The notes below the pieces were generated by a model. It was not told where the DNA came from. It saw only the letters and a program-made list of their open reading frames with translations, and ran no database searches. A program made the position numbers and the translations under genes. A stretch of 64,000 bases of DNA from Candidatus Poribacteria bacterium (GTDB taxonomy: Bacteria; Poribacteria; WGA-4E; WGA-3G). Where the stretch lies: NCBI GenBank assembly GCA_965197475.1, contig CBDANF010000002.1, forward strand, positions 160,001 through 224,000. Direction: 5' to 3'. Shown piece after piece: positions 36,733-53,595 of this stretch (the first letter of the stretch is position 1; every line of letters starts with the position of its first letter).

Positions 36733-38709
36733 ATGACTTTGAATTTATTTGGCTATCCCAATGAAGACTACCTTACCTACAAAGAAGTCTCAGAAGTTTT
36801 AGGGGTTTCTACCGCAACCGTTAGAAATTGGGTAAAACTGGGGCACATTAAGCCAGCAGCGATTCATTTAAGTAATAGATTTCTAAGCTCTCACATAGAA
36901 GAGATTAGAAGTAAAATTACTAATGGCTCTCTTGCCAAACTCAATAAACGTGCAAATAAAGGAAACTCTATCTCTAAGATTATCCCTACAGAATATGCAG
37001 ATAATCGTGAAGTATTTGAGTCTATTTTAAAAATTACTGAACTTTTTAAAAAATATAATCTTGATAGGGATACAGTGCTGCTTGTAACTGCTATGAATTT
37101 ACTAAGGCAGATTGGCTTAATTAAAGATACACAAGATTTATCCCTTAATCGTATCAACTATACTAATGATATAGTAAAAGCTGAAATAGAAGATTGGTTG
37201 CATAGCAAAAAAGGCAGGCAAATCACAAAACATTATGATGATATTTTTGATGTTAAAATCCCGACAAACTGTGATTTCTTAGGGTTACTGCATCAGTCAC
37301 TACTAAATGAGGGCGAGAGGGTAAAAACTGGCTTATATTACACACCAAAACATATTGTCGATGAGGTAGTTAAGCAAAATATAAAAAGCAGCCATACTGT
37401 CCTTGACCCTTGCTGTGGTACTGGTCAGTTTTTGCTTTTAGCTTCTGAAAAAATAGATAATCCATCTCATCTATGGGGTTTTGATATTGACAAAAGTGCT
37501 GTTAGACTTGCAAAGATAAATCTTTTTTTAAAGTTTCCAAAACATAGATTTAAACCAAACATTTATTACAAAAATTCATTACTAGAAGATGGTGAAGGTA
37601 TCCCCAACTTTGATTTAGTTATAACAAATCCGCCTTGGGGATCCCATTTCTCTAAAGATGAAGAGTTGTTACTAAAAAAGAAATACCAAGATATTAAGTC
37701 AAACGAGGCGTTTGCATATTTTCTCAAAGTGGGTATTGGATTTTTGAAAGAGGGTGGCACGCTTTCGTTTATCTTACCCGAGTCAATCCTAAACATTAAA
37801 ATCCATAAAGATATTAGGGAAAAAATCCTTAAGCAAACTACAATTAAAAAAATTAAACACCTTGGTCGTCCGTTTAATGGGGTTTTTACAAATGTAGTTC
37901 GAATAGACTTGGTAAATAAAAAAGCAGACAAAAATTCTTTCATTGCGGAAAAAGAAAATTTACTATTTCATCCTGAGCAAATACGATTATTATCAAATAA
38001 AGATTTTATCTTTGATGTTTTTACAGACACAAGTGATTATGTGTTGACAGATAAGGTGTTTTCTGTCAAACATAGTACGTTAAAAGATAATGCAATATGG
38101 GCTCTTGGTATTGTTACTGGTGACAATAAAAAACACCTACAAGAAAACAAAAGTAGTGACTTAGAACCAATCCTAACTGGTAAGGACATCAAAAGATTTT
38201 GCCCGAATAAACCAAGTAAATTTATTCGGTTTATACCAGATAAGTTTCAACAAGTTGCACCAGAAGAAAAATATCGAGCAAAAGAAAAATTGCTATATAA
38301 GTTTATTTCTAAGCAATTAGTTTTTGCTTATGATGATAGGCAAACCCTCACCCTTAACAGTGCTAATGTATTGATACCAACAATATCTAATTACCCTATT
38401 AAAACAATTTTGGCGTTGTTTAATTCAACCCTATATCAATTTATCTTTGAAAAGAAGTTTGGTGCTATAAAAGTACTTAGAAGCCACATTGAGCAATTAC
38501 CTTTGCCCGATATTAGCAAAAGAGAACATATGAGGTTTGAAAAGTTGGTAGACGAACTGCTAAAAAAAGATCTTGGTATAGAAGAGCGTAAAAGTCTATA
38601 CAAGAAGTTGGATGATGAGGTTATGAGTTTATTTTCTTTAGATGAACAAGAAAAGGAGCGTATATATAACGGAGTGAGCGTATCAGATAAATTACTAGAA
38701 ATAAATTAA
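36733..38709 (+). CDS. N6-adenine DNA methyltransferase (gamma class, TaqI-like TRD) with N-terminal HTH
   Basis: EVSEVLGVSTATVRNWVK HTH; GLYYTP, LDPCCGTGQF, NPPW. Confidence 0.9.
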   Translation: MTLNLFGYPNEDYLTYKEVSEVLGVSTATVRNWVKLGHIKPAAIHLSNRFLSSHIEEIRSKITNGSLAKLNKRANKGNSISKIIPTEYADNREVFESILKITELFKKYNLDRDTVLLVTAMNLLRQIGLIKDTQDLSLNRINYTNDIVKAEIEDWLHSKKGRQITKHYDDIFDVKIPTNCDFLGLLHQSLLNEGERVKTGLYYTPKHIVDEVVKQNIKSSHTVLDPCCGTGQFLLLASEKIDNPSHLWGFDIDKSAVRLAKINLFLKFPKHRFKPNIYYKNSLLEDGEGIPNFDLVITNPPWGSHFSKDEELLLKKKYQDIKSNEAFAYFLKVGIGFLKEGGTLSFILPESILNIKIHKDIREKILKQTTIKKIKHLGRPFNGVFTNVVRIDLVNKKADKNSFIAEKENLLFHPEQIRLLSNKDFIFDVFTDTSDYVLTDKVFSVKHSTLKDNAIWALGIVTGDNKKHLQENKSSDLEPILTGKDIKRFCPNKPSKFIRFIPDKFQQVAPEEKYRAKEKLLYKFISKQLVFAYDDRQTLTLNSANVLIPTISNYPIKTILALFNSTLYQFIFEKKFGAIKVLRSHIEQLPLPDISKREHMRFEKLVDELLKKDLGIEERKSLYKKLDDEVMSLFSLDEQEKERIYNGVSVSDKLLEIN

Positions 38710-38713
38710 AAGC

Positions 38714-39451
38714 ATGGATGACTTAAAACAAAAACTGAATCAACTTATAGAAGAACTTTCTGAAGATAAAAAACAGGTAATTAGAAATAGACTGGATGAC
38801 CTAGTATCGGTTTACCCATTTAATGAGTATGAATACATAATTTCATCTTTAGTGGGGTTCGGAAAGATAACTCTGGATGATTACTATGAGATTAGAGATG
38901 ATTACATATCACGTAATGCGTATCTAAAATTATTCGAGATTACATCACCAAGAACTTTTGGAGAAAAGTGGGCACAAGGGCAACTTATGTCTCTTGAGCC
39001 AGACTTTTTAAAACCAACAAAGAAGCTTGATGAAAATTATAGTGGTGAGTACGACCTTGTATTACCATACGGAGACGAAGTTATAAAAATTGAAGTAAAA
39101 GCTTCTAGAGTCGTGCACGCAAAGAGCAAAGAACCACTATACGTAAAAGCTCTATCTTACGAAAGCCTCCATCCATTTTTAATGAATTTCCAACAAATAA
39201 AACCTGCGTGTGCTGATGTGTTTATCTGGATTGCTGTATGGAAAGATGTTATTAAATACTGGGTCATTTCTTCTACTGAAGTAGAAAACAACAAGTACTA
39301 TTCTAAGGTGCAGCACCGAGGGAATATTGGTGAGGGTCAATTACATATCACAGATGACAACATTGAAGAGTTTGTACAATATGAGTGCAATCCCACAGAG
39401 TTAAGACAAACCGTTATTGATGCCTATGAAAGACAAATGAATATTAAATAA
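38714..39451 (+). CDS. Putative type II restriction endonuclease (PD-(D/E)XK)
   Basis: FGEKWA, YDL...IEVKASR, FQQIK; directly after the MTase; AT-rich. Confidence 0.75.
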   Translation: MDDLKQKLNQLIEELSEDKKQVIRNRLDDLVSVYPFNEYEYIISSLVGFGKITLDDYYEIRDDYISRNAYLKLFEITSPRTFGEKWAQGQLMSLEPDFLKPTKKLDENYSGEYDLVLPYGDEVIKIEVKASRVVHAKSKEPLYVKALSYESLHPFLMNFQQIKPACADVFIWIAVWKDVIKYWVISSTEVENNKYYSKVQHRGNIGEGQLHITDDNIEEFVQYECNPTELRQTVIDAYERQMNIK

Positions 39452-39578: not shown

Positions 39579-40661
39579 ATGAAAAAAGTTCTCGTCGCAA
39601 TGAGCGGTGGTGTAGATAGTTCCGTTACTGCTGCCATGATGGTTGATGCTGGTTATGATGTCACTGGCATCACCATGCGCCTCGGTGCGCCCGATACAAT
39701 TGAGGTGGAACCTGAACGTCCCAATTGCTGTTCCCTTGAAGGCATTGAGGACGCACGACGTGTTGCCACCCAACTCGGAATCCCGTTTTACGGCGTGAAT
39801 TACGAAGATATTTTCCGAGAACAGATCATTGATTACTTTGTTGCAGAATATCTCGTCGGGAGAACACCGAGTCCCTGCATGGTATGTAACCGAGAACTCA
39901 AGTTTGGCAAACTCCTTGACCTCGCAAAAACTTTGGAATGTGATGCTATCGCTACCGGCCATTATGCCCGAATTGAACAACATCCTGAGACTGGACGTTT
40001 TCTCTTACGCAAGTCACTTGATGTTAGCAAGGATCAGTCCTATTTCCTTGCTGCGCTGACGCAGGATCAGTTGCGATGTGCGATGATGCCCCTTGGTGAA
40101 TACACGAAAGCCGAAGTGCGTGATCTTGCGCGTAAGTATCAGTTGCGAACCGCTGAAAAAGTCGAAAGCCAAGAACTCTGCTTTGTTGCGGATACTAATT
40201 ATAGACGATTCCTCCAAGACAGAATTCCCGAAAAAATTGAAAGTGGCGATATTATTGACAAGGATGGCAAAGTTCTCGGCAGACACCAAGGTGTACCATT
40301 TTATACTGTTGGGCAACGACGCGGTCTCGGTATAGCAGTTGGTAAACCCCTCTATGTGACGCAGCTTAATGCTTCTGAGAATACTGTTGTTGTCGGAGAA
40401 CCGGACGATCTCCTTGAGGACACTATGCATGTAGAACGTATCAACCTTATCTCCATAAAGAAGTTGACAGAACCGATCCGAGCACTTGTCAAAATACGTT
40501 CTCGTGATGATGGTGGTCTCACGACAATCTCTCCTATCAGCGACACAGAAGCGGTTGTTCAATTTGACGAACCGCGGCGTGCAATTACCCCCGGACAAGC
40601 CACCGTTTTCTACGATGGTGAATACGTCATCGGCGGCGGCTGGATCAAAACATCTTTGTAG
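39579..40661 (+). CDS. mnmA: tRNA-specific 2-thiouridylase
   Basis: AMSGGVDS, PSPCM.CN, ATGHY, KDQSYFL, ESQELCF, YTVGQRRGLG, TPGQ. Confidence 0.97.
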   Translation: MKKVLVAMSGGVDSSVTAAMMVDAGYDVTGITMRLGAPDTIEVEPERPNCCSLEGIEDARRVATQLGIPFYGVNYEDIFREQIIDYFVAEYLVGRTPSPCMVCNRELKFGKLLDLAKTLECDAIATGHYARIEQHPETGRFLLRKSLDVSKDQSYFLAALTQDQLRCAMMPLGEYTKAEVRDLARKYQLRTAEKVESQELCFVADTNYRRFLQDRIPEKIESGDIIDKDGKVLGRHQGVPFYTVGQRRGLGIAVGKPLYVTQLNASENTVVVGEPDDLLEDTMHVERINLISIKKLTEPIRALVKIRSRDDGGLTTISPISDTEAVVQFDEPRRAITPGQATVFYDGEYVIGGGWIKTSL

Positions 40662-40677
40662 CACAAATCCCGTGGCA

Positions 40678-41601
40678 ATGAAACCAAAACTCCTCTGTCT
40701 CCTCGGTCCCACAGCGGTTGGTAAAACAGAGATAGCGATTCAACTTGCACAACGCCTCAATGCCGAAATTATATCCGTTGACTCCCGACAAATATATCGT
40801 CAGATGGATGTCGGCACTGCGAAACCTACCCTTGCAGAACAGCAAGCAGCACGACATCATGTAATAGATTGTGTGGATATTGCGCAACCCTTCTCTGTTG
40901 CCGATTTTCAATCCCTTGCTGACACTGCAATCTCAGATATCCAAAACAGAGGTAAACAAGCTTTACTTGTCGGCGGCGCGGGTCTTTACTTTCGGGCGAT
41001 TGTTGATGGGTTGTTTGAGGGACCAGGGGCTGATGTTTCACTCCGAAAGCAACTTGAGCAGGAAGCAGCGCAGCACGGTGTTGATGTGCTCCATGATCGC
41101 CTCCGTGCCTGCGATCCAATATCTGCCCATCGGATTCATCCCAACAACCTCGTTCGAGTTATTCGCGCGCTTGAAATCTACGAACTAACAGGTACTCCCA
41201 TGTCCGAACACCAACAGCAGTGGCATCCGGAAAACCAACGTTTTCCGTTTATCGCCTTCGGATTGACGATACCTCGCGAGCTACTTTACCATCGCATTGA
41301 ACAACGCGTAGACGTGATGCTTGCTAACGGATTGATAGTGGAGGTGGAGTCGTTGTTAGCGGCAGGATATTCACGGGATACTTTTGCGCTCCAAAGTTTT
41401 GGGTATAAAGAACTGATAGCTTATCTGGATGGGAGGTGTACATATGTTGAAGCAGTTTCACAACTAAAACAGAACACGCGCCGATTTGCCAAACGACAGT
41501 TGACGTGGTTTCGTAAAGATATGCGTATTGAATGGTTAGATCGTGAGGAAATGCCCAATATTGTTGGCCATATTTTAAGGAAGATTAAAGGACAATTATG
41601 A
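40678..41601 (+). CDS. miaA: tRNA dimethylallyltransferase
   Basis: GPTAVGKT, DSRQIY..MDVGTAKP, TRRFAKRQLTWFR. Confidence 0.97.
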   Translation: MKPKLLCLLGPTAVGKTEIAIQLAQRLNAEIISVDSRQIYRQMDVGTAKPTLAEQQAARHHVIDCVDIAQPFSVADFQSLADTAISDIQNRGKQALLVGGAGLYFRAIVDGLFEGPGADVSLRKQLEQEAAQHGVDVLHDRLRACDPISAHRIHPNNLVRVIRALEIYELTGTPMSEHQQQWHPENQRFPFIAFGLTIPRELLYHRIEQRVDVMLANGLIVEVESLLAAGYSRDTFALQSFGYKELIAYLDGRCTYVEAVSQLKQNTRRFAKRQLTWFRKDMRIEWLDREEMPNIVGHILRKIKGQL

Positions 41602-41676
41602 TAAACACCTTCTTGATTATGTTAAGTAAAACTGATACAATAAATAATTGATGCTCTTAGCGAAAAGGAGAGAAAG

Positions 41677-43344
41677 ATGAGACGTTTTGGAACACAAGGT
41701 CCAGTCAACCCTCAAGAACACTACATTGTTTCACGGTCCGAGGAAATTGCCGACTACATTGCGCGTGTTGCAGAAGGCAAATATGTCGTCCTTTTCGCAC
41801 CACGCCAAACAGGCAAAACCACCTTCTTTCAAGCTGCCTTAGAAACACTCATTGCCGGTGTTGAACCAAATACATCTGTCACACCAACCGAATCCGTTTC
41901 AAAGTTTAACTACTTCCCTATTCAACTAAATTTTGACATCTATAAAAACCTTGATCTGTCAGAGTTTTATACGCATTTGTACGAACAGATCTGTGAAAAA
42001 ATAGAAGCCGTTTTTCAAAGACGTGGTGTTGTTCCTTCTGCGGATTTAAGTCAATTCCTGGAGAACACGACTTTAACAAATCATCTCTCATTGTTGTCGT
42101 TCTTTAAACGGTTTGCGAGTTTTCTGGACTCTGAGTTTGCTGGGCAGCAAGTTGTTCTTGTTATTGACGAATTTGATGGCATCCCGCAAGTTGCAGTAAG
42201 CGATTTCCTTCATACGCTCCGTCATATTTACATTTCCGGCAAGCCGCGATGTCCCCACAGCGTTGGTATCGTCGGAGTTAAGAGTATTGCGCAGCTCAAC
42301 TACGACAGGTCTATTTCCCCTTTCAATATTCAAGACGAGTTCCATCTGCCCAATTTTACCCTTGAACAGATGCAGAAACTGCTTGGACAATATACTGACG
42401 AAATCGGACAAGTCTTCATCCCAGAAGTTATAAAGTCTATTCATAAGCAAACTGCCGGGCAACCTGTGCTTGTCAACCGATTCGCGCAGATTCTCACAGA
42501 AGAACTGGATATCCCGAAAACTGAGCCGATTATCATGGCACACTTTTCAAAGGCACACGCTCAACTGCTACATGATCGGAATACCAATATTGAGCATCTA
42601 ACAACCAATATCCGAAAGAATCCGCGCTTTGAAAACGTTCTAATGCGAATTATGGAACGTGATGAAGGTGTGGACTTCAACATGGACGATGACATCATCA
42701 GTGAACTCGCCACTTATGGTGTCATCAAAAAAGCCTCAGACGGTATGTGTGAAATCCTCAATCCGATTTATCTCTACCGCATCATGAGAACCTTTAAACC
42801 GACAGTGAATGGCTTAGAGAATCAGTACCTTCCTGGAGGTGGCGATGAGGGATTTTTCAATTATCTCAAACCCACCGGTCAGATTGATATGGAGGCGTTA
42901 CTCAATAACTTTCGAGATTTCATTGCACGGGCGGGGTTCAAGATTTTACAGGTGCCAGATACGCCACAAGAATCGGTTGGCAGACATCTCCTGCTCGCGT
43001 ATCTCGACCAGTTTGTTAAAATCGTAGGCGGTTTTATGCACATTGAAGTGCAAACCGGCAGAGGCAGAATGGACATCATTATCACCCATAACCAGCAAAA
43101 ATATATCGTAGAAACAAAAATTTGGAGAGGCGACAGTCGTTATCAAACAGGTAAAAAGCAACTTGCTGTATATCTCAACACTGAGGGAGTAAAGGAGGGA
43201 TATTACATCGTCTTTGATCATCGAGAACAACCAGAGCCACGGACAGAGACAGAAATGATAGAGGGGTTGACGATTCGGAGTTATGTTATTCCTGTGATGC
43301 AGGAGCTACCCTCAGGAATTGTAAGTACTCATAGAATGAAATAA
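41677..43344 (+). CDS. AAA-like ATPase with C-terminal PD-(D/E)XK nuclease-like domain
   Basis: APRQTGKT, IDEFD, SPFNI; E...GRGRMDII...IVETKIW. Confidence 0.8.
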   Translation: MRRFGTQGPVNPQEHYIVSRSEEIADYIARVAEGKYVVLFAPRQTGKTTFFQAALETLIAGVEPNTSVTPTESVSKFNYFPIQLNFDIYKNLDLSEFYTHLYEQICEKIEAVFQRRGVVPSADLSQFLENTTLTNHLSLLSFFKRFASFLDSEFAGQQVVLVIDEFDGIPQVAVSDFLHTLRHIYISGKPRCPHSVGIVGVKSIAQLNYDRSISPFNIQDEFHLPNFTLEQMQKLLGQYTDEIGQVFIPEVIKSIHKQTAGQPVLVNRFAQILTEELDIPKTEPIIMAHFSKAHAQLLHDRNTNIEHLTTNIRKNPRFENVLMRIMERDEGVDFNMDDDIISELATYGVIKKASDGMCEILNPIYLYRIMRTFKPTVNGLENQYLPGGGDEGFFNYLKPTGQIDMEALLNNFRDFIARAGFKILQVPDTPQESVGRHLLLAYLDQFVKIVGGFMHIEVQTGRGRMDIIITHNQQKYIVETKIWRGDSRYQTGKKQLAVYLNTEGVKEGYYIVFDHREQPEPRTETEMIEGLTIRSYVIPVMQELPSGIVSTHRMK

Positions 43345-43353
43345 AATGGTTTT

Positions 43354-46300
43354 TCAATCAATACCATGTTCTTTGCAATAGTCCCGAATAATTGGCAAAA
43401 AATCATCGGCATATTTTTCGGTTTTCTTAGGACCAACACCATGAATTCGCCTAAATGCTGTTCGGGTTTTTGGGAAATGGATTGCCATTTCTCTTAATGT
43501 CCTATTAGTGAAAATCCCTTTTCCTTCTACCTTTGCCAACTTTTTACTTTTATCCTGAAGTTGCTCAAAAAGATCATGGTCGTATTCAATTCGTTCTTTG
43601 GATGTAGCATCATTAGTATTGAGACCTTCAGTTTTGATCTCTACCGAATTTATTCCATGCTCCTCGCAATAGGTAAGGATTATAGGAAAGAAAATATCAG
43701 TATATTTTTTTAATTTCTCTGGTTCTACGTTAGACATCTGTCTAAACGATTCCTCAGATGTCGGAAAATAGGTCGCCATCGCTTGAAGTGTTTTATCGTG
43801 AAAAGTCTCGTAAACCTGATGCCTCTCTGTCTCAAAGATTTTATCTCGTTCAGCTTGTAGTAATTCAAAGAGTTCTGGAGAATGTTCATTTAGTGCTTCG
43901 GATGTGGCATCATGAGTATTCAATGTTTCAGGTGCGTCCGCTACGGAATTAATGTCTTGTTCTTTGCAATAGTCGCGGATAATCGGTAAAAAATCATCGG
44001 AGTATTTTTCAACTTTCACATCACCAACACCATTAATCTGGAGAAATGCTTCCTTTGATTGTGGTAATTTGATTGCCATCTCTTGCAATGTCTTATTGCT
44101 AAAAATGCAGTATGCCGGTAACTTTTCATGCCCTGCTAACATTGTGCGTCTTTCGCGAAGTTGGTCGTAAAGTTCAGGAGCGGATAAGTTTGAAACCTCG
44201 GATGTTGATTCATAAGTATTTACTACTTCGGTTACCTGATTTACTGTATCCACCGGAAGTCCCCAAAACATCTCTTTGTTTTTTAATACATCCCACCCTT
44301 TTTTTGTCAAACGAAGACTACCGTACCGTGAATCTCGCTCTAGCAGTTCGTGTTTAAGGAATTGATGTGCTAAATATCGCCACTGCTCCTTGTTGTACTT
44401 GCTACCTTTGCCATAGGTCTTGATTTTATCATGGTCGTTATCAAGAATCTTTTTACGCTTTGAGCCCCGTAAAATATCAACAATATATACTTCTCCGAAA
44501 ATCTGATTTGTACAGTAAACACCAGAAAGAAATTTTTGCGCTGGTTCTGTCAAGTCAACCCGCTCCATTTCAGAATTGTGGCAGTTGTCACACATTCCAC
44601 AATTCTGTATCTCGTATTCTTCCCCGAAATAGCCTAACAATTCCTTACGGCGGCACTCTGTTGAAGTCGTCCACGAAACAAGCGTTTGCAATCGTTTAAG
44701 TCGTCCTTCCCGTTCAGATGAGGCACCTTGCTCAATGAAATCGTTGATGATTTCTGCATCTTCATTATCAAATAGCAAAAGACATTCTGCTCTGATCCTA
44801 TCTCGGCCTGCACGTCCAATTTCCTGATAATAAGATTCTGGATTCTTTGGCAATCCAGCATGTAGGACAAAGCGTACATCTGCTTTGTCTATACCCATTC
44901 CAAACGCAATTGTGGCAACTATCACCCGGGTGTTGCCATTAATGAAAGCCTCTTGATTTTGCTTGCGGGTTTCACTATCAAGTCCTGCATGATAGGGCAG
45001 TGCCGAAATTCCATGTGCCACTAAATCCTGATACAGCGATTCAACTTGTTTTCTCCTTTGACAGTAGATTATACCGGAGCCGTTAGTATGCTTATTAAGA
45101 AATGTTAATGTTTGCCCAAGTAAGTCAAACCGCGGCTCAACAGCGATGAAGAGGTTTTCTCTGTCAAAACTGGTAATAAACTCGTTTTCATCAGGAATTT
45201 TTAGCAACTTCTTAATATCATCTTGAACCCGCGGAGTTGCGGTGGCCGTTAGTGCCACACAAACAGCGTTCGGAAAGCGTTGACGAATAGAGACTAATTC
45301 TCGATAATCTGGACGAAAATCGTGCCCCCACTGCGAAATACAGTGTGCTTCATCAATCGCAAGACATGACACATTTGATCTATCAAGTTTCAGCAACGTT
45401 CCAGGTTTCACCAGCGTTTCAGGAGCCATGTAAAGCAGCTTCACTTCACCCTGTTTGACACGTTGCATTGTGGTTTCTTGTTCTGAATAGCTGAGAGTGC
45501 TGTTGAAAAAGGCCGCGCGAATACCCCTCTGTTCCAACTTCATTACCTGGTCCTGCATAAGCGAAATTAGCGGTGAAACAACAACGGTCAGACCGTCAAA
45601 GATAAGTGCTGGCAATTGGTAACAGAGTGACTTTCCACCACCCGTCGGTAGAACAATCAGAGCATCCTGCCCATTGAGGATATGTTTAATAATCTCGTCC
45701 TGAAATGGGCGGAACCCTTCATGCCCAAAAACGTTTTTGAGAATTTCTAAGGAAGTTTGCGTTAAAGTTTGAGATGGAGGCAGTTTCTCTTTACGGAGAG
45801 GTTTCTGTTCTTCTTGCGTTGCTTTCTCAAAAAACCAGCCAGAAATTTGAGCGTAGCAACGTTTTTCTACTTCTGGTTTATCTTCTGGTCGCCACCAATG
45901 CGCTAGCGACACCCGCAAGAGCGTATCTGCAGGAATTATCTCAAGCGGTTCTTGAAAACCTCCGAAAGTAAATGTACAGCCTCCATTTTCTGTAGGATAA
46001 CGATACCGGGGTCTCTGTTTCTCTATATCAAGGGTGAGCGGCAGATCTGGTCTCCAAAATGTAGTGCTGTAGATTGGAATACCGTTTTGCTTGGCGATGT
46101 GCAGCCTACCGCGCTCAGTATTTTGCAATAAACCTTCATAAAGCATCCGCGGAGGTCCAATTTTCGGCGGCATTAAGAGTTCAATTGCACTTATCAGCTC
46201 TCTCGTGTCTTGCGTCCTATAAAGCCGCGACTTACTGTGCACGACAAAGTTTTCGTTATGTGGCGGAATCAGCGAAGTTTCCGGTTCACCAGTAATTTTC

Positions 46301-46449
46301 CAAATATCGCCAACCTCATATTTTCGATTAGCACCGTCATGCGGATCAGCGTTAAAAGGGATGAGTCTAACACTTTCTCCCGTCTCTGTAATTGCGCCAA
46401 TACACGCACCGCTCCCCATTCGTGTTTTCGCAACAATTAGAACTCTCAT
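43354..46449 (-). CDS. recQ: RecQ helicase with an extra N-terminal dual-OB-like domain and three HRDC domains
   Basis: [39 protein letters not shown]; three HRDC-like repeats; about 205-aa N-terminal domain (IVAKT.M...CIGA...VRL). Confidence 0.88.
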
Positions 46450-46934
46450 GGCAAAATATTTTCAACCTCCAAATTGAATGTTTCCGCCAGTTTATCTGCT
46501 ACTAATGATCGGTGACATGCCTCCGGTGCAGTTTCTACACAAAAGAGTGCCAAAATCTTTGCATCCGATTCTAATTCATCAAGCAGACTTTGCGGGTCAA
46601 ACGCATCAAGGCATTCGGTGTGATAAGCTTCAATAAACGCTTCTCCAAGTTCAGTGCGTTTACGTTTAGCCGTTTTTGTTGCTTTATCCGCCGCAGCTTG
46701 CTTTTCTCGGACGGTTTTTGTCGGCCCAAGGTCCTTTCTATGGATATATCGGATGCCAAGTTTTGCAAGACGTGCTTGCAACCGCTTGCTGTTGGCAAAT
46801 GCATAAGTTGCGCCGCGCACACCTCGTCGGCTACGAATATCGCAGAACGTATCAACCTCTGCTTTGCACAAAGCGTCAAAAAAACTGGTTTCATCAAATC
46901 CATATACACCTATAGTCACAATTTTAATCTTCAT
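46446..46934 (-). CDS. DUF488 family protein
   Basis: [32 protein letters not shown]. Confidence 0.85.
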
Positions 46935-47494
46935 ACTGAATCAGGGCGTTTCTTCCGCGAGTGAAACGTCTCCTCCCCAAACAGATCCATCTGCCCACCC
47001 GTAATACGCTCAATAATCTGCTCCTGAGTCATCTGCTCACTGTTTTCATCAATATGAATCACAGGTAAATCCTGAGTCGTGAGGGTTGCACTAATCAGTT
47101 TACATCGATGGCAATGCTCCGGCTTCTCCTCGCTACACATAAGTGCCACGCACTGTTGTTGCAAAAAGGCGTTGTGGAGACGTTTAATACCACGCTGATA
47201 AAATTCCGCATTCTGAACTTTCTCGTAATCAACCATTCCGTTGACGTAACACGTTTCATCATCAGGTTTGCCACCGAGTGAATCTCCCATAAACACATAG
47301 CGAATACCTTGCTGTTCTAATTCATTAGCAAGCGGTTTTTTAGAGAATTCCGGTTTATAGCGTGAATACGGAACTGAACGGACATCAATGAGAAAAACAA
47401 TCTCATACTGGCGAAGCACCTCAATGAATTCCGTTATCGAACGGCTGCCATAACCTATCGTATAGATTGGGATAGTGTCTGTTGTTCTTTCCAT
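46931..47494 (-). CDS. DUF488 family protein
   Basis: IYTIGYG, IDVRSVPYSR, LGG.P, ALMCSE..PEHCHR. Confidence 0.9.
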   Translation of the reverse strand: MERTTDTIPIYTIGYGSRSITEFIEVLRQYEIVFLIDVRSVPYSRYKPEFSKKPLANELEQQGIRYVFMGDSLGGKPDDETCYVNGMVDYEKVQNAEFYQRGIKRLHNAFLQQQCVALMCSEEKPEHCHRCKLISATLTTQDLPVIHIDENSEQMTQEQIIERITGGQMDLFGEETFHSRKKRPDSV

Positions 47495-47813
47495 GATAAG
47501 TAGATAATATCATATTACCCTCCAAAAAACAACTGGATTTTATTGCTCCATTTCTCCAATTAAAAAATCCTTGCTATTTTAACATAGAATCTGTTATATT
47601 AATTACATTCCTTGATTTTGTGTAGATAGCGCATTAGTTCTCCGTTTTTTCAGAACTTTTTTAGGATAATATAGTCTAATTCATAAGGATATGGTCGGAA
47701 CCGTTTCTGCTAAGCGTGTCCATATCAGGGAACTTGTGCTACGTTTTGGGGTAACTCTCAATAAATAGACAGGATTTATGACCTCAGGATTTGCCATAGA
47801 CAAAAGGTAAAAG

Positions 47814-48473
47814 ATGAAAGAGAGTTGGCAAAACCTTATTGATCTCGTTGTGAAGCCAAGTGCTACATTTGAACGTCTTAAAGCCAACCCGAAGTGGGTG
47901 ATGGCATTTGTTCTATTTTTTTCACTTTCTATCGGGTTGGCTTGGGCAAATGCGCCGTTCATAGAACGCCTCATGTTCCTACTGAAACCGGATGTCGCTA
48001 CAACAACTTCCTTCAAATCATATCTGACAAAGGGGACTGTTACAATAGTACTCTGGTGCATTATACTGAGTGTGATATTCACAATCGCAGCGCGAGTTTT
48101 CAAAATAAATCCCGCACTAAAATTTAAACATATTTATGCGGCCGTTGTGCATACGTCATTGATCGGCACCATAATATATCTAATCAATATTGGGTTGTTC
48201 CCATTTTTTAGGCAGCTTGAAGATATTAATAGACCGATTGATATGAAACTTCTCCCGGGATTACACATGTTAGCGGGATCAATCGAAAATGCACATATTC
48301 TTACGTTTCTGAGTTATATAAACCCTTTGAGTGTATGGTATATTGTTGTCTTAACAATTGCCGTTGCTATTCTCGCCGAAGTAAACCGAGTTAAGGCATG
48401 TTTTACAGCACTAATCATCTTTTTTATTAGAATTGGTACCGAGATTCTGTTTTTTTATCTGACTTTTTACTAA
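47814..48473 (+). CDS. Yip1-family membrane protein
   Basis: KPSATFERL..PKW, INPLSVWY; about five TM helices. Confidence 0.75.
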   Translation: MKESWQNLIDLVVKPSATFERLKANPKWVMAFVLFFSLSIGLAWANAPFIERLMFLLKPDVATTTSFKSYLTKGTVTIVLWCIILSVIFTIAARVFKINPALKFKHIYAAVVHTSLIGTIIYLINIGLFPFFRQLEDINRPIDMKLLPGLHMLAGSIENAHILTFLSYINPLSVWYIVVLTIAVAILAEVNRVKACFTALIIFFIRIGTEILFFYLTFY

Positions 48474-48630
48474 ATGTATCAATACCACAGAAATAGTTGT
48501 GAGTTAAAATAATTTTGCGAGATTAAAACACTTTTTAACTGATACCGAGAAATGTCTTCAAAATATAGGCGGATATCTGTAAGTTGCTCCAAACCTGTCT
48601 TTTGGCAGATGGGGTGAAGGAGAAAAATTA

Positions 48631-51600
48631 ATGAGTCCCAGCGAAAATTATGCAGAATTACAAGCAAAGATTTTAGACGCGCGGCGTGTGTGGAAACGCA
48701 GCCTCTTCTGGACAGGATTTGCCATTGTACTAATAGGTATCCTTGCAATTCTGGTTGGAGGATCAATTGTTGATTGGCTAATGCCGATGCCAAGTGCTGT
48801 CCGTATTGCCCTGCTTGCAGGAATTGTCGGCACAACCCTCTACCTACTTTACAAATACCTGATTCAACCGATGAGAGCCGCACTTACCCTCCGCGATGTT
48901 GCTCTCAACGTTGAACAAAGCCATCCAAACCTTGAGGATAGGCTTGTGAGTGCTGTGCAATTCGGTGCCCGCGAATCTGATGATCCAATTGAGTCGCACA
49001 TGCTTCAACGATTGCTTGAAGACACAACTCAACGGATCAAAGGGATTGATTTCAAAACAACGATTGACCACAGTCGAGCCCGGAAGTATGTCGGTATCGC
49101 AGTTTTAGTCATTGCTGCATGTGGTTTGCTTGCACTCCTGTTTCCCACAGAAATCAATACGAGCTTGATGCGAATACTTGTGCCGTGGGAAAAAACTGAC
49201 CCGATTTTAACAACCAAGGTTAAAGTTTCACCCGGCAATGCTCGTATCCTGCGTGGAAAAAGCCTGCCTATCCAAGTCATCGTTACTGGCAAATCCGCAG
49301 AAAAGGTTGTCTTGGCGTATTATGACAAAGATGCTCCGCCTACTGCAGAAAACGAAAATAGCAAACAAGAAGTCAATATGGTGCAAAACCCGAAGGATAA
49401 ACGCGGATTTGCTTATGAAATTTTCAATATTAACGCGGATATGGAATACTATGTTGTGGCTAATGAAACGACATCAGAACGCTACACAGTTGAGGTTTTC
49501 GAGATGCCGCGCATAGACAATGTTTCCGTCTCTTATACCTACCCTGAGTATACGATGCTCAAACCGGTTGTGCAGCAAGGTAGTGGGGACATTCAAGCGG
49601 TCGTCGGCAGCACAGCAGAAATCAGAATCACCGCCAATAAAACTATTCAGAAAGCAACGTTCACCCTCCAAAGTTCAGAATCTGCAGCCAAAACTGAAGA
49701 TAGTGACACGGATGAATCGGTTCCTTCAAAATCCTCAGAAATGGTCATTGCTGATGGTAACATTCTCACCACAACCTTAGAAGTCCGTGAAGATGGGAAA
49801 TATACTGTTGAACTGCTCTGTATTGATGGGTTCAATAATGAGGTGCCGATTGAATATAATATCAAAGCAATGCCGGACAACGCGCCTGAAGTGGTTATCA
49901 AAGAACCCGGACGCGATGTGAAAGCAACAAAATTGGAAGAGGTGAAAATCGTTGCTGAGGCTACGGACGACTACGGTGTTGAAAAATTAAGCTTAATGTA
50001 TCGCATCGGCGCAGGTGAATTGAAGGAGATCGTCCTTGAATCTACTGGTGAACTTACAGCGGAAGATGCTGATTTGCGATCAGGTAAACACCTCCAAGCT
50101 GGCACTTATACCTTCTATCTGGAGGAATTTGATGTTGAACCGGGCGAAGTTATCTCCTATTACGCACACGCCATCGACAATAACACGCTTACAGGACCTG
50201 GTGAAGCGAACAGTGAGATTTACTTCATAGAAATCAAACCTTTTAATCAGAGGCTCGAACAGGGTGAATCAGCTGAAGAACAACAGCAACAACAAGGTAT
50301 GCCGAACCCGTTTCTCGAATTAATGGCTTCTCAGAAGCAGATTATCCGAGAGACATGGAAGCATATTAACGCAAAACCAGATACGGTTACAGAAGAATAC
50401 AGGTCCGCAGTTAAGAAAACTAGTGAGAAGCAATCTGAACTAAAGGATAATACTCAGCGCGTGGCAGACGAGCTTAGTACTGCGATGCAAGAAATGCAGG
50501 TTGCACCAGAAGTTATGATGAACCTTGAAGAGGCAATTGCTCAGATGGGCAAGGCGAGAGATAACCTGAATGCTACCCAACCTGTAGAGGCAATGCCACC
50601 GGAACAAGCTGCACTTGAACTGCTCAATAAAGTCAATCTTGAAATCCCAAAAGTGCTGCAGCAGGCGAGATCTAGTCAGCCGCAACTCGCTGAGAACTTT
50701 GAATTGGAAATGGAAGATTTGCAAAGCGAGCTTGAACAGGATCAGGAAGAACTTGAACGAGAGATGCAGGAACAGACGCAGCAAATGTTAGACCAAGCGC
50801 GTGAAATGTTGGAACAACAGCAGAACCTAAATCAACAGAGCCAGCAGTTGGGCAGAGAAAATCAACCCTCTCCAAGCGACATGCAACAGAACAGTCAGCA
50901 GCAGGGGCAGTTGTCTCAGCAAGCGCAGCAGATGTCACAACAACTCGGTCAAATGCAAGGCAATGCGCAAGGCACACAGGAACAACGCCTGGGTCAGGCT
51001 GGACAGGCAATGCAACAAGCAGGCGAACAGATGCAACAAGCTTCGCAAGGGATGCAACAGCAGCAACCTCAGCAGAGTGCTGCTAAAGGTGAAAAGGCGG
51101 AAGACAGGCTTGAAGAAGCCATTGAACAACTTGAGAGAGCCGCCGCTGAATTCACAGATAATGCGTTAGAGAGAACTTCCCAACAACTGCAGCAGTTGAC
51201 TGAGGAGCAATCTGACGTTCAACAGCAGACGCAAGAACTAAGGGATAGGTCTCAGCAATCCGGAATGAGTCCCGAAGATTATCGCCAAGCCTCTGAACTC
51301 TCGAATCAACAACGTCAACTTCAACAGGACTTAGAGTCGCTTCAGAACAATTTGAGCGATCTTCAGGAACAACTTAGCCAAGAGAATCCGGAGGCTTCCC
51401 AAAATGTCTCAAATGCCTCAAGAAGACTTACTGAAGAACAGACTGCGGAAGATATGGCAACGGCGCAGCGTGCATTGCAATGGCGTAGTTTGCAATCCGC
51501 AGACCTGAATCAGCAAGAAGCGGTAGAGACTTTAGAGCAAGCACAAGCGGATCTTCAACAGGCAAAAGCCAATATGGCACGCACTGAAGAGGAACAACTT

Positions 51601-52155
51601 GAAGCTGCCCTGGAACAACTCCAAAACTTTGAAGAACAGATGCAAGATATACAACGTGAACTTGAAGCGATGGAGGGACAGGAACAGACAGAGGCGCAAC
51701 AAGAACGAGAACAGCAGCTTGCTGAACAACAGCAGCAGCTTCAGGAACGGATGCAACAAGCGCAGCAGGCTATGCAGAATGCACAGGAAGGGGAGCAACC
51801 CGGACAGGAAGGGCAACAACCTGCACAGAATGGACAGGAAGGGCAACAACCTGCACAGAACGGACAGGGCGAAAACGAAACTGATGTCGCACGCGGCGGG
51901 GCAGAATCCAATCGCAAAATTGAGGAATTGTGGCTCGGCATGCTTGATGCTATGCAGCCCCCTCGGACAAATCGTTCCAGACCTTTTCCGAACTATGAAC
52001 TCGCTATCCGTGATCTGAGAAAACTGGAATCCGCTTTAGAAGAACGGCTCAGTATGCTTCAAGAGAAGAAACAGTTGACACAGGTTGCGAAGGAAGACGT
52101 GCCCCCTGAATATCGCAGACTCGTTGATAACTACTACGAGTCTTTAGCGAAGTAG
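48631..52155 (+). CDS. DUF4175-like membrane-anchored Gln-rich coiled-coil protein
   Basis: L.DRLVSAVQF, P.Y, DNAPEV.I..P, ATDDYGV, long Q-rich region, VPPEYRRLVDNYYESL. Confidence 0.8.
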   Translation: MSPSENYAELQAKILDARRVWKRSLFWTGFAIVLIGILAILVGGSIVDWLMPMPSAVRIALLAGIVGTTLYLLYKYLIQPMRAALTLRDVALNVEQSHPNLEDRLVSAVQFGARESDDPIESHMLQRLLEDTTQRIKGIDFKTTIDHSRARKYVGIAVLVIAACGLLALLFPTEINTSLMRILVPWEKTDPILTTKVKVSPGNARILRGKSLPIQVIVTGKSAEKVVLAYYDKDAPPTAENENSKQEVNMVQNPKDKRGFAYEIFNINADMEYYVVANETTSERYTVEVFEMPRIDNVSVSYTYPEYTMLKPVVQQGSGDIQAVVGSTAEIRITANKTIQKATFTLQSSESAAKTEDSDTDESVPSKSSEMVIADGNILTTTLEVREDGKYTVELLCIDGFNNEVPIEYNIKAMPDNAPEVVIKEPGRDVKATKLEEVKIVAEATDDYGVEKLSLMYRIGAGELKEIVLESTGELTAEDADLRSGKHLQAGTYTFYLEEFDVEPGEVISYYAHAIDNNTLTGPGEANSEIYFIEIKPFNQRLEQGESAEEQQQQQGMPNPFLELMASQKQIIRETWKHINAKPDTVTEEYRSAVKKTSEKQSELKDNTQRVADELSTAMQEMQVAPEVMMNLEEAIAQMGKARDNLNATQPVEAMPPEQAALELLNKVNLEIPKVLQQARSSQPQLAENFELEMEDLQSELEQDQEELEREMQEQTQQMLDQAREMLEQQQNLNQQSQQLGRENQPSPSDMQQNSQQQGQLSQQAQQMSQQLGQMQGNAQGTQEQRLGQAGQAMQQAGEQMQQASQGMQQQQPQQSAAKGEKAEDRLEEAIEQLERAAAEFTDNALERTSQQLQQLTEEQSDVQQQTQELRDRSQQSGMSPEDYRQASELSNQQRQLQQDLESLQNNLSDLQEQLSQENPEASQNVSNASRRLTEEQTAEDMATAQRALQWRSLQSADLNQQEAVETLEQAQADLQQAKANMARTEEEQLEAALEQLQNFEEQMQDIQRELEAMEGQEQTEAQQEREQQLAEQQQQLQERMQQAQQAMQNAQEGEQPGQEGQQPAQNGQEGQQPAQNGQGENETDVARGGAESNRKIEELWLGMLDAMQPPRTNRSRPFPNYELAIRDLRKLESALEERLSMLQEKKQLTQVAKEDVPPEYRRLVDNYYESLAK
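51802..51867 (+). repeat. 30-bp tandem repeat encoding GQEGQQPAQN
   Basis: GGACAGGAAGGGCAACAACCTGCACAGAAY twice plus a partial copy. Confidence 0.85.
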
Positions 52156-52219
52156 GCGGGTTGCATTCAACTATGGTGGAATATGAAATAGGTAGACACC
52201 TACTAGTAGGCGCGCTTTG

Positions 52220-52334
52220 ATGAAGTTTAAGTATTTAAATCGGTAATCCCGATTTCCCCATGTCCGGTAGGTGCGGTTTCCTAACCGCACCGAGCATTGC
52301 TAGTAAATTACCGAATTATTTTTTTAATCTTCAT
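52220..52334. mobile_element. MITE-like element C, inserted in a REP and carrying another REP
   Basis: 28-bp imperfect TIR (22/28) ATGAAG...CGGTAAT; the flanks rejoin into a REP also seen at 56342-56365. Confidence 0.7.
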
Positions 52335-52396
52335 TAAGCGCGCTGATCGACGGTGTATCATTAATTGTAAAATCTACTATATAATGGAGAATTACT

Positions 52397-53224
52397 ATGG
52401 TCCAACCTTTTATTGTTAAGCCCGGTAACAGCATTAGTCTGAACGGGGTTGGAAAGGGTTGTAATCCCGAACATGTCCCAGAATATACAGGGGCTTACCA
52501 AAAAAAGGCTGAAACTAAAAAGCCGTTGAAAAAACTACATAAAAAGATGCTCAAACTTCAGGAGCTGCTTTACGCGGAGAATCAACACGCGCTTCTGATT
52601 ATCTTGCAAGGCATGGATACATGCGGCAAGGACGGTACCATCAGAAAGGTGATGGCTGGTATCAACGTGCAGGGCTGCGATGTAGTTAATTTCAAAGTTC
52701 CCACAGTGGATGAGATTTCTCGAGATTTTTTGTGGCGGGCACACAAAGCGGTGCCACAGAAGGGAAAGATCGGAATTTTCAACCGTTCACATTATGAGGA
52801 TGTGCTTGTTGTCCGTGTGCATGATCTTGTGCCGCAATCGGTTAGGAAACAACGCTACCAGCAGATTAACGATTTTGAAAAAATGTTGGTAGAAAATGGA
52901 ACGATTGTTCTAAAATTTTTCCTCCACATTTCAAAGGACGAGCAGAAAGAACGGCTTGAATCTCGGATCAACGACCCTTCAAAGCATTGGAAAATCACCG
53001 AAGCCGATATTCGCGAACGCGCCTACTGGGATGATTACATGCAGGCGTATGAAACAGTTCTCCAAAAATGTAGTACCGATTGGGCACCTTGGTATATAAT
53101 CCCCGCTAATAAGAAGTGGTATCGAAATCTTGTTATCACGGAACGCATTGTTGAAACCCTTGAGGGGTTGGACATGAAATTCCCGAAACCGACATCTGAT
53201 GTGTCAATATTTTCCGTAGAATGA
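52397..53224 (+). CDS. ppk2: Polyphosphate kinase 2 family (class III-like)
   Basis: QGMDTCGKDGTI, DFLWR, FNRSHYEDVL, KFFLHISKDEQ. Confidence 0.92.
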   Translation: MVQPFIVKPGNSISLNGVGKGCNPEHVPEYTGAYQKKAETKKPLKKLHKKMLKLQELLYAENQHALLIILQGMDTCGKDGTIRKVMAGINVQGCDVVNFKVPTVDEISRDFLWRAHKAVPQKGKIGIFNRSHYEDVLVVRVHDLVPQSVRKQRYQQINDFEKMLVENGTIVLKFFLHISKDEQKERLESRINDPSKHWKITEADIRERAYWDDYMQAYETVLQKCSTDWAPWYIIPANKKWYRNLVITERIVETLEGLDMKFPKPTSDVSIFSVE

Positions 53225-53244
53225 GCAGAAATGAAAGAGTGGCT

Positions 53245-53541
53245 ATGAAATTCAATCTTTTGAGTGATAACAAAAGAATCGTAGAAATAGCAATGTTGAT
53301 AGGGATAGTAATGGTGAGCGTGGATGCTATAATGCAAAACCGAGGTATTGCGGAAAAACATTTTTTGTGGATCTCCGGATTGGGATTTCTCGTAATGCTT
53401 TGGAGCATTTTTTCATACATTTTCGTTAACGCCAAGGCTATTAGCATAAAACCTTCAAGGATTTTAGGAAACATTTTATTTTTGGTCTTGTCCGCTTTTT
53501 GGGGAATATTTATGACGTGGATATACTTCGGAACGCAGTAG
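53245..53541 (+). CDS. Small membrane protein
   Basis: Three hydrophobic segments; start uncertain (53221 or 53245). Confidence 0.55.
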   Translation: MKFNLLSDNKRIVEIAMLIGIVMVSVDAIMQNRGIAEKHFLWISGLGFLVMLWSIFSYIFVNAKAISIKPSRILGNILFLVLSAFWGIFMTWIYFGTQ

Positions 53542-53595
53542 TTTTTTTGACTGTTATGTGCAGAGTATTGTAAATTTTGAAACAAGGAATATTTG

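Follow-up and report, generated by a model that had tools for sequence, protein, structure and literature searches.

A DUF488-DUF488-DuOB::RecQ operon from a sponge-symbiont Poribacterium: a candidate accessory module for processing DNA ends or single strands

The DNA analysed here, hereafter the window, is a stretch of 64,000 nucleotides from the genome of a sponge-symbiont bacterium of the phylum Poribacteria (contig CBDANF010000002.1). It contains three consecutive minus-strand genes, which encode in this order two DUF488 proteins, DUF488-A and DUF488-B, and a large protein in which a dual OB-fold domain (DuOB) is joined to a RecQ helicase with three HRDC domains (DuOB::RecQ-3xHRDC). The coordinates of these genes, of their domains and of neighbouring features are given in Table 1. 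Reading of the sequence shows that all three genes are coupled by ATGA stop/start overlaps, at 46934-46931 between DUF488-A and DUF488-B and at 46449-46446 between DUF488-B and DuOB::RecQ. An original prediction, made from the letters of this DNA, had described the operon as three ATGA-coupled genes, and both the list of open reading frames (ORFs) and the sequence bear out their positions.

Table 1. The DUF488-DUF488-DuOB::RecQ operon, the domains of its third product and neighbouring features (positions in the window)
Feature	Position	Strand	Basis
DUF488-A, 187 aa, operon gene 1	46931..47494	-	ORF list; PF04343
DUF488-B, 162 aa, operon gene 2	46446..46934	-	ORF list; PF04343
DuOB::RecQ-3xHRDC fusion, 1031 aa, operon gene 3	43354..46449	-	ORF list; Pfam; TIGR01389
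DuOB domain, residues 1-205, two OB folds	45835..46449	-	PF22557, 83.1 bits
Linker of ~25 residues (206-230), E/K/Q/P/T-rich, outside all Pfam domains	45760..45834	-	Sequence; Pfam
RecQ helicase core, residues 247-550, Walker A and DEAH intact	44800..45711	-	DEAD, Helicase_C
RecQ zinc-binding and RQC winged-helix, residues 563-726	44272..44763	-	PF16124, E 6e-15; PF09382, E 8.2e-30
Three tandem HRDC domains, residues ~740-1031	43354..44232	-	PF00570 in three stretches, E 1.6e-44
AT-rich intergenic stretch separating the operon from the divergent Yip1-domain gene; presumed operon promoter region	47495..47813	.	GC 0.37-0.40
AAA_35 + PDDEXK_9 protein, 555 aa, convergent with recQ	41677-43344	+	Pfam
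Restriction-modification-type methyltransferase, 658 aa (HTH_17 + N6_Mtase + Eco57I + TaqI_C), then a 245-aa ORF without Pfam match	36733-39451	+	Pfam

The protein encoded by the third gene was divided by Pfam into DuOB (residues 1-205), DEAD (247-409), Helicase_C (447-550), RecQ_Zn_bind (563-623), RQC (628-726) and three HRDC copies. All Pfam domains of the helicase part are over their cut-offs (DEAD with E 1.2e-28, Helicase_C with E 6.6e-26), and the Walker A motif PTGGGKS and a DEAH box can be read in the translation. Against the NCBIfam recQ equivalog model TIGR01389, which has a cut-off of 640.2 bits, the 1031-residue protein scored 768.2 bits; in the scan of the genome the score was 703.5 bits, again over the cut-off. 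By every sequence criterion applied, this is a true RecQ, and the Pfam domains and the TIGR01389 score confirm the complete RecQ that the original prediction had read here. The HRDC copies are pairwise 42-47% identical in BLASTP comparisons, and a search for a tandem repeat at the nucleotide level in the HRDC region found none. Among the Poribacteria loci L023-L063 of the survey described below, the orthologues of the fusion range from 824 to 1135 residues and vary chiefly C-terminal to RQC, which suggests that HRDC copies are gained and lost.

The N-terminal domain matches the Pfam model PF22557 ("Dual OB-containing domain") over the whole profile (positions 1-210 of 210) with an E-value of 3.8e-23 and 83.1 bits, the cut-off being 27. 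An AlphaFold2 model derived from an alignment of 72 diverse homologues is nearly all beta, with a mean predicted local distance difference test score (pLDDT) of 94.5; the last modelled block, residues 211-215 within the linker, has a pLDDT of 57. When this model was compared with the Protein Data Bank (PDB) using Foldseek, the tandem-OB domains of the HIN-200 proteins AIM2, IFI16 and p202 came out on top (E 2.6e-5, probability 1.00), with TM-scores of only about 0.38, followed by Teb1-AB, a Deinococcus SSB and BRCA2. A VIA search aligned residues 1-80 to RPA, mtSSB, PriB, SSB and MCM N-domains, with Z-scores of 7.0-7.4 that are middling and uniform. DuOB is predicted to fold as a tandem OB, and the OB-like character that had been proposed for this part of the protein is upheld by the PF22557 match, the AlphaFold2 model, the HIN-200 matches of Foldseek and the OB matches of VIA. 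In the 72-sequence alignment the residues R28, P63, H64, E66, W132, G164, R179, S181, L182, Q201 and G204 are invariant, and the second half of the domain has conserved aromatic residues (F131, W132, Y149, W185, W186 and W205) in addition to the conserved basic residue R179. A complex prediction for DUF488-A, DUF488-B and DuOB, performed with 35-row alignments, with DuOB as the partner and without controls, returned an ipSAE of 0.00 in both runs, a value that counts neither way.

DUF488 is a large family found across many bacteria and archaea, and includes YeaO of Escherichia coli. A 2024 preprint describes YeaO as a DUF488 protein without literature. Both small proteins of the operon match PF04343, which has a cut-off of 22.2 bits: DUF488-A with E 1.8e-23 and 83.9 bits, DUF488-B with E 9.9e-14 and 52.4 bits. 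Given these E-values and those of the third protein, the domain assignments are beyond chance. The C-x-E-x5-C-H-R motif is formed by C120, E122, C128, H129 and R130 in DUF488-A and by C132, E134, C140, H141 and R142 in DUF488-B, and at least 98% of the orthologues (137 for DUF488-A, 143 for DUF488-B) retain each of these residues. The intact motifs first seen in the two proteins of the window are thus conserved across both orthologue series, and both paralogues look active as judged by their sequences. DUF488-A and DUF488-B are only about 24-30% identical to each other and belong to separate orthologue series, which makes them distinct paralogues. With the DUF488-N3a model PF22751 ("Active DUF488-N3 subclade") DUF488-B reached 26.2 bits and DUF488-A 21.5 bits, both under the cut-off of 27.

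Profile searches found no solved structure related by sequence to DUF488-A or DUF488-B at E <=0.01. An AlphaFold2 model of DUF488-A was obtained with a pLDDT of 87.8 and with blocks of 57 at the C-terminal tail (residues ~157-181), which is conserved yet modelled with low confidence. In the VIA search this model aligned with the N-domains of tetrapyrrole/diphthine methylases at Z 8-10.6 (the best being CbiF, Z 10.6), and with Cys-dependent phosphatases of the protein tyrosine phosphatase (PTP) fold: KAP (Z 9.7, 129 residues aligned), a Sulfolobus PTP (8.6), PRL (8.5), laforin (8.4) and a baculovirus RNA 5'-phosphatase (7.0). Sixteen chains had a Z-score of at least 8, values just moderately over the typical background of 7-8. 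Burroughs & Aravind are said to have united DUF488 with the tetrapyrrole methylases and the Cys-phosphatases in a rhodanese-phosphatase superfamily in 2023. The original prediction had likewise named a rhodanese/phosphatase placement; the PTP-fold matches of VIA (Z 7-9.7) agree with it, while a Foldseek search with the same model gave no match in the PDB at E <=0.001. On these models, we take a place for DUF488 within the rhodanese-phosphatase superfamily to be supported, though short of proven.

The distribution of DuOB was examined at several depths. Within the phylum, DuOB was matched once per genome in 114 of 176 genomes, and 102 of these matches lie in open frames of 636-1272 residues. 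A word-indexed search with residues 1-230 returned 879 proteins of 567-1805 residues at E <=0.001. In all 120 matches listed, PF22557 was accompanied by helicase domains, and the named ones came from "Candidatus Poribacteria". An exhaustive profile-free search with DuOB alone matched 699 clusters (at 50% identity), the remoter of which are mostly about 200 residues long; the long DuOB clusters that were tested with Pfam have the composition DuOB-RecQ-HRDC, often with a C-terminal HTH_40. Two cluster representatives had other compositions: P0137 (464 residues) combines DuOB and HRDC without a helicase core, and P0127 (368 residues) reads in a single frame through a DUF488-like region into DuOB, which may reflect either a genuine fusion or a frameshift at the ATGA overlap.

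For the gene neighbourhoods, two scans of one genome per species yielded 405 and 373 confirmed loci, and the best 80 of each, 149 after de-duplication, were surveyed; these loci were ranked by likeness to the two queries and hence form a non-random sample. Orthologues of DUF488-A and DUF488-B lie upstream of DuOB on the same strand in 137 of the 139 loci with at least 1300 nucleotides of upstream sequence. The two exceptions are a locus in which there is no DUF488 (L102) and a locus in which both DUF488 genes are present but divergent (L157). Among the 135 loci with at least 1500 nucleotides downstream, a RecQ core is found within the DuOB ORF in 94, as out-of-frame pieces in 1, and not at all in 40. 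It had been considered that the fusion might be limited to this one assembly; it is found in at least six phyla, namely Poribacteria, Latescibacterota, Acidobacteriota, Chloroflexota (mostly Anaerolineae), Verrucomicrobiota and Planctomycetota. Stand-alone forms of DuOB occur in Chloroflexota (Ktedonobacteria and Chloroflexia), Bacteroidota, Pseudomonadota, Nitrospinota, Planctomycetota and others.

In 47 helicase-free loci, DUF488-A, DUF488-B and DuOB were the sole families common to all, and clustering of all the ORFs of these loci found no fourth conserved gene. The clusters ranked next were antisense ORFs (16 loci) and lineage-specific neighbours present in at most 12 loci, which encode PrkA, DUF444, PrmC, a molybdopterin oxidoreductase, a GT4 glycosyltransferase, or proteins with no Pfam match. 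As a side observation, in one Chloroflexota locus (L114, 1-2796, plus strand) the gene for the PrkA serine kinase is split by an intein with a LAGLIDADG homing-endonuclease domain. Because 40 of 135 loci carry the triad of DUF488-A, DUF488-B and DuOB without a RecQ nearby, the helicase is a non-obligatory part of the module, and the triad is the real unit. In a maximum likelihood tree of 150 DuOB rows (quick IQ-TREE search), the label "fused" changes only once: a branch with an SH-aLRT of 100 parts the 47 stand-alone rows from the 103 others, which consist of 102 fused rows and one locus cut by a contig end (L094). Judging from these sequences, the DuOB-RecQ fusion is apparently of single origin.

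Within the genus of the window, the module varies between closely related genomes. DuOB is present in 22 of 40 genomes, and canonical RecQ is present in exactly those 22, in 18 of them over the cut-off and in 4 as high-scoring partial or split matches. DUF488-B follows DuOB exactly, occurring in these 22 genomes and nowhere among the remaining 18. DUF488-A, by contrast, occurs in 39 of the 40 genomes, with 17 of the 18 DuOB-negative ones among them. Four DuOB-negative genomes were opened, and three of them (G078, G101 and G090) form a decay series. In G078 (L181, 6045-8777), DUF488-A is kept (86% identical) and is followed by an insertion sequence (DUF4277 + DDE_Tnp_1). G101 (L184) has kept DUF488-A and the first 19 codons of DUF488-B, while DUF488-A, fragments of DUF488-B and DuOB residues 153-192 remain in G090 (L185). 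Finally, G102 (L183, 4007-7783) has kept miaA, the AAA_35 gene and DUF488-A. Between the AAA_35 gene and the intact DUF488-A of this genome there is a FokI-like type IIS restriction-modification (R-M) system, composed of a D12-class methyltransferase, an N6/N4 methyltransferase and an endonuclease with all four FokI domains. Since the breakpoints differ, DUF488-B and DuOB::RecQ were lost as a block several times independently. The cassette is accessory and dispensable in this genus, and the joint gain and loss points to DUF488-B and DuOB::RecQ working together. Because DUF488-A persists without either of them, it may also act on its own.

If DUF488-A can act in genomes that lack DuOB, what are the enzymes acting on? 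One answer would be a nucleotide, an NAD-derived metabolite or an RNA end, with DuOB (together with RecQ, where present) sensing single-stranded DNA (ssDNA) and switching the DUF488 enzymes on, as part of a damage-signalling or nucleotide-salvage unit. Besides persisting where DuOB is absent (17 of 18 such genomes in the genus), DUF488-A has among its fold relatives an RNA 5'-phosphatase and phosphatases of inositol pyrophosphates, lipids and glucans, and for the clade as a whole the abstract of the 2023 work of Burroughs & Aravind reportedly predicts activities directed at NAD+ derivatives and RNA termini. A preprint also reports a CTP-binding ParB-CTPase fold fused to DUF488-HTH. However, all the other domains of the cassette are DNA-directed (RecQ, RQC, HRDC and a tandem OB like those of HIN-200, RPA and SSB), and the triad has no conserved link to genes of nucleotide metabolism. 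We consider an action on small molecules or RNA improbable.

It was also checked whether these bacteria have a separate housekeeping recQ, as the original prediction had advised, with a divided outcome: a second RecQ-family helicase does exist, and it is found in 38 of the 40 genomes of the genus, but its gene stays under the equivalog cut-off. In the genome of the window it is a frame of 588 residues (G000:C3, ~3569892-3571544, minus strand, locus L003) that scored 418 bits. It has a helicase core, a zinc-binding match to PF16124 (45 bits) and a C-terminal CxxCxxC; its match to TIGR01389 extends only a little beyond the helicase core and leaves the model's C-terminal part uncovered. The two genomes from which this short helicase is missing are G075 (73% complete) and G106. 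Because of its conservation in 38 of 40 genomes, the short helicase probably serves these bacteria as their core RecQ-like enzyme. The fusion is nevertheless the only gene of the window's genome over the recQ equivalog cut-off, and it has the housekeeping genes mnmA and miaA as neighbours. This could be taken to mean that the fusion is simply the housekeeping RecQ with a decorative N-terminal extension, and that its adjacency to the DUF488 genes is incidental. Such an explanation is contradicted by the co-occurrence counts: 40 of 135 loci have the triad but no RecQ, 137 of 139 loci have the DUF488 pair, and in the genus the 18 of 40 genomes that lack canonical RecQ are exactly the DuOB-negative ones, whereas the short helicase is found in 38. 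The ATGA overlaps that couple the genes speak against it as well, and we give it hardly any credence.

Contigs from sponge metatranscriptomes (four runs of one study; 129-293 nucleotides, depth 2-8) are 99-100% identical to pieces of recQ, DUF488-B and the intergenic region. This is a weak hint of expression, as contigs from an RNA library may reflect DNA carry-over and neither the strand nor the transcript ends can be read from them; stretches that the contigs leave uncovered carry no information. A scan for sigma-70 promoters returned 5 promoter-like sites against 11.0 expected, with no minus-strand site upstream of the operon, and was as uninformative as a scan for terminators.

On one side the operon is flanked by mnmA-miaA and the convergent AAA_35/PDDEXK_9 gene, and on the other by the divergent Yip1-domain gene and a DUF4175 protein. 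The latter (48631-52155, plus strand, 1174 residues) carries membrane segments at its N-terminus, matches DUF4175 weakly and has a very long C-terminal half of low complexity, rich in Q and E. Among the 80 loci L023-L102, 20 have miaA and 21 have the AAA_35 gene beside the cassette, all of them Poribacteria-type. The AAA_35/PDDEXK_9 gene was considered as a further part of the system and rejected, since it is found in 0 of the loci L103-L180, the 21 loci flanked by it are all Poribacteria-type, and the family is multi-copy: five genomes of the genus have 8-15 matches each, at 53-92% identity, several of them with internal stops. About 5 kb from the operon, the stretch with the methyltransferase gene and the following ORF has a GC content of 0.32-0.34, against about 0.45 nearby, and is possibly an acquired R-M unit.

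In the wider survey, the 167 nearest ORFs were taken from the de-duplicated loci L064-L180, outside the Poribacteria block; 26 of them, shorter than 150 residues, were dropped and 141 were scanned. They belong to 148 Pfam families, mostly metabolic or housekeeping, with none dominant (Oxidored_molyb 6, SpoVR 4, Uma2 4). A minority match PADLOC defence models at E <=1e-10 (PDC-S03 4, PDC-S01 3, mad2 3, and single matches to a type I methyltransferase, TIR-TM and QatA); there is no background rate for these matches, and their share is not readable as enrichment. Searches of plasmid and phage collections located DuOB in 1 of 72,556 plasmids and in 0 of 50,697 phage records. The sole plasmid is pRMAR01 of Rhodothermus marinus (NC_013502.1, ~39961-54146, L182), in which a helicase-free triad lies directly upstream of cas genes. 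An SSB gene and an AAA ATPase gene precede the triad, which is followed by a long cas1 (1578 nucleotides), cas2, a J-domain gene, cas6, csx2 and csm6. A general CRISPR link was rejected: Cas1, Cas2 and Cas6 of Rhodothermus have no relative in the other 158 loci (blastp, 1e-4, a search in which distant Cas1 types could be missed).

Several of these observations raise the question of whether the module is a defence against phages or plasmids. In that case DuOB and RecQ would recognise the ends or replication intermediates of the invader, and the DUF488 enzymes would block or modify these ends against ligation, replication or packaging. The occurrence of the cassette is patchy (114 of 176 genomes of the phylum, 22 of 40 of the genus), and it was lost independently with differing breakpoints in G078, G090, G101 and G102. 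Its slot holds the FokI-like type IIS R-M system in G102 and an insertion sequence in G078, and in the window a TaqI_C/Eco57I-type methyltransferase lies some 5 kb away. DUF488-A matches the PADLOC candidate PDC-M45B with an E-value of 1.2e-52 over profile positions 5-177 of 204. The position of the pRMAR01 triad directly upstream of cas1-cas2-cas6-csx2-csm6 and the defence matches among the 141 flanking ORFs fit the same idea, and conflict roles are reportedly predicted for DUF488 systems in the abstract of Burroughs & Aravind (2023).

However, PDC-M45 is itself a mere candidate, and DuOB matches no PADLOC model: there was none at E <=1 for the domain of the window and none at E <=0.01 for the copies from Vibrio, Sphingomonas and Polaribacter. 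For PDC-M45A, no protein of the cassette was among the matches listed (for the 1031-residue protein, the best 25 of 38). No further family is common to the 47 helicase-free loci, the flanking ORFs are mostly metabolic or housekeeping while their defence matches lack a background rate, and in Poribacteria the cassette occupies one stable site beside miaA (20 loci). Moreover, the helicase is a canonical RecQ equivalog and not a diverged defence helicase, and Rhodothermus-like Cas genes are found in 0 of the other 158 loci. We regard defence as a genuine possibility, without expecting it to be the answer.

The reading that we tentatively put forward, with confidence somewhat short of even, is that of an accessory RecQ-coupled module that processes DNA ends or ssDNA in genome maintenance. 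RecQ would unwind DNA in the 3'->5' direction at gaps, forks or ends, with RQC and HRDC supplying structure-specific DNA binding, and DuOB, on its flexible linker, would keep hold of the single strand so exposed or of its terminus. The two DUF488 Cys enzymes could then remove or transfer a phosphate or sugar-phosphate-type group at this terminus, for example a blocking 3' or 5' adduct; such a chemistry is suggested by their fold and motif only. Helicase-free triads would perform the same task without a tethered motor. The ancestral module would be the triad without a helicase, one lineage of which became fused to RecQ. We lean slightly towards maintenance of the cell's own DNA, in the form of accessory end repair, over an attack on invader DNA, in view of the canonical RecQ, the stable housekeeping neighbourhoods and the near absence from plasmid and phage collections.

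A number of findings weigh against accessory end repair. The varying presence and absence within the genus, the FokI-type R-M system in the same slot of G102, the triad beside cas1-cas2 on the Rhodothermus plasmid and the closeness of DUF488-A to PDC-M45B all fit defence better. DUF488-A is intact in 17 of 18 genomes without the rest, so that the proposed machine is not strictly one unit. With regard to the chemistry, the top VIA match of DUF488-A is the methyltransferase domain of CbiF rather than a phosphatase, and Foldseek retrieved no phosphatase or other PDB entry for it at the threshold given above. Finally, the invariant polar residues of DuOB (R28, H64, E66, S181 and Q201) are unusual for a plain ssDNA binder and could signal more than binding. 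In a further variant of the proposal, one that we consider unlikely, these residues and R179 would form a ligand-binding or catalytic site of DuOB's own, and the triad would perform a multi-step chemistry of a new kind on DNA termini or an adduct, taking off or putting on an end modification, with direct coupling to RecQ translocation in six phyla. If this variant were true, it would define a new pathway of DNA repair or DNA conflict, on a phosphatase-like fold not yet known for DNA.

How much of this is new? The original prediction spoke of an undescribed system, which is too strong, as Pfam already has models for DuOB and for DUF488-N3a. The two models, PF22557 and PF22751, are presumably derived from the 2023 study of Burroughs & Aravind, which is said to present the DUF488/dual-OB link as a computational prediction with a predicted role in DNA-end processing. 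No experimental description of the DUF488/DuOB module was found in the literature searched, and searches of it for DuOB, PF22557, PF04343, DUF488-N3a, "dual OB-containing" and PDC-M45 gave no relevant paper. DUF488 together with RecQ had no match in this literature either, though the study of Burroughs & Aravind (2023) lies outside that search and may show the fusion. Among the papers listed, none deals with the mechanism of DUF488 as far as titles and abstracts go, and those that name the rhodanese-phosphatase superfamily do no more than cite it. Compared with the accessible literature, what is new is the covalent DuOB-RecQ fusion with its breadth and apparently single origin, the two "active" DUF488 partners, and the evolutionary behaviour of the cassette in Poribacteria.

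The triad gives the DUF488 family a sharply defined DNA-directed context, with two paralogues that appear active from their sequences and a dedicated tandem-OB partner, and one lineage ties this context covalently to a well-understood helicase. The function of DUF488 thereby becomes directly testable with oligonucleotide substrates and Cys mutants, and the survey includes cultivable carriers of the triad: Rhodothermus marinus DSM 4252, Polaribacter marinivivus CECT 8655 and Sphingomonas pseudosanguinis DSM 19512. If the module does process blocked ends, a new enzyme fold would be added to end repair; if it serves defence, it would represent a new type of defence that uses RecQ.

Comparison with known systems places each part of the cassette. 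With bacterial RecQ (TIGR01389) the fusion shares the equivalog-level score, the helicase core, the zinc-binding domain, RQC and HRDC, and RecQ of Deinococcus radiodurans reportedly also has three HRDC domains. It differs from bacterial RecQ in the N-terminal 205-residue DuOB, in the operon coupling to two DUF488 genes, in its accessory status and in the variable number of HRDC domains. The PADLOC models for DpdF, of the Dpd 7-deazaguanine system, and for PsyrT match the helicase core of the fusion strongly, and evidently pick up any RecQ. Identity with DpdF was rejected, as the equivalog model NF041063 gave 200.5 bits against a cut-off of 550 and there is no other Dpd gene within the operon. 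To the candidate phage defence system PDC-M45 the cassette is linked by the match of DUF488-A to PDC-M45B and that of DUF488-B to PDC-M45C (E 3.2e-12); DUF488-B also matches PDC-M19A (E 7.7e-15), and DuOB has no match among the PADLOC models. DuOB has the OB fold in common with HIN-200 (AIM2, IFI16 and p202), RPA, SSB and PriB, but at 8-15% sequence identity, a TM-score of ~0.38 and Z ~7 this is a likeness at the level of the fold only, and unlike these proteins DuOB possesses the invariant set H64/E66/R179/S181/Q201. Over residues ~6-181, DUF488-A is modelled with a fold like that of the PTP-fold and dual-specificity phosphatases and of the methylase domains (Z 7-10.6). Like the PTPs it has a conserved Cys followed by an Arg. 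The P-loop motif of PTPs is C-x5-R, whereas the motif of DUF488 is C-x-E-x5-C-H-R. The module is itself a member of the DUF488/DuOB neighbourhoods covered by PF22557 and PF22751: the cassette shares with them a DuOB over the Pfam cut-off, encoded with DUF488 in 137 of 139 loci, and it differs from them in that DuOB is here fused to a full RecQ-3xHRDC and in that the DUF488 pair, with its motif kept, scores below the N3a cut-off.

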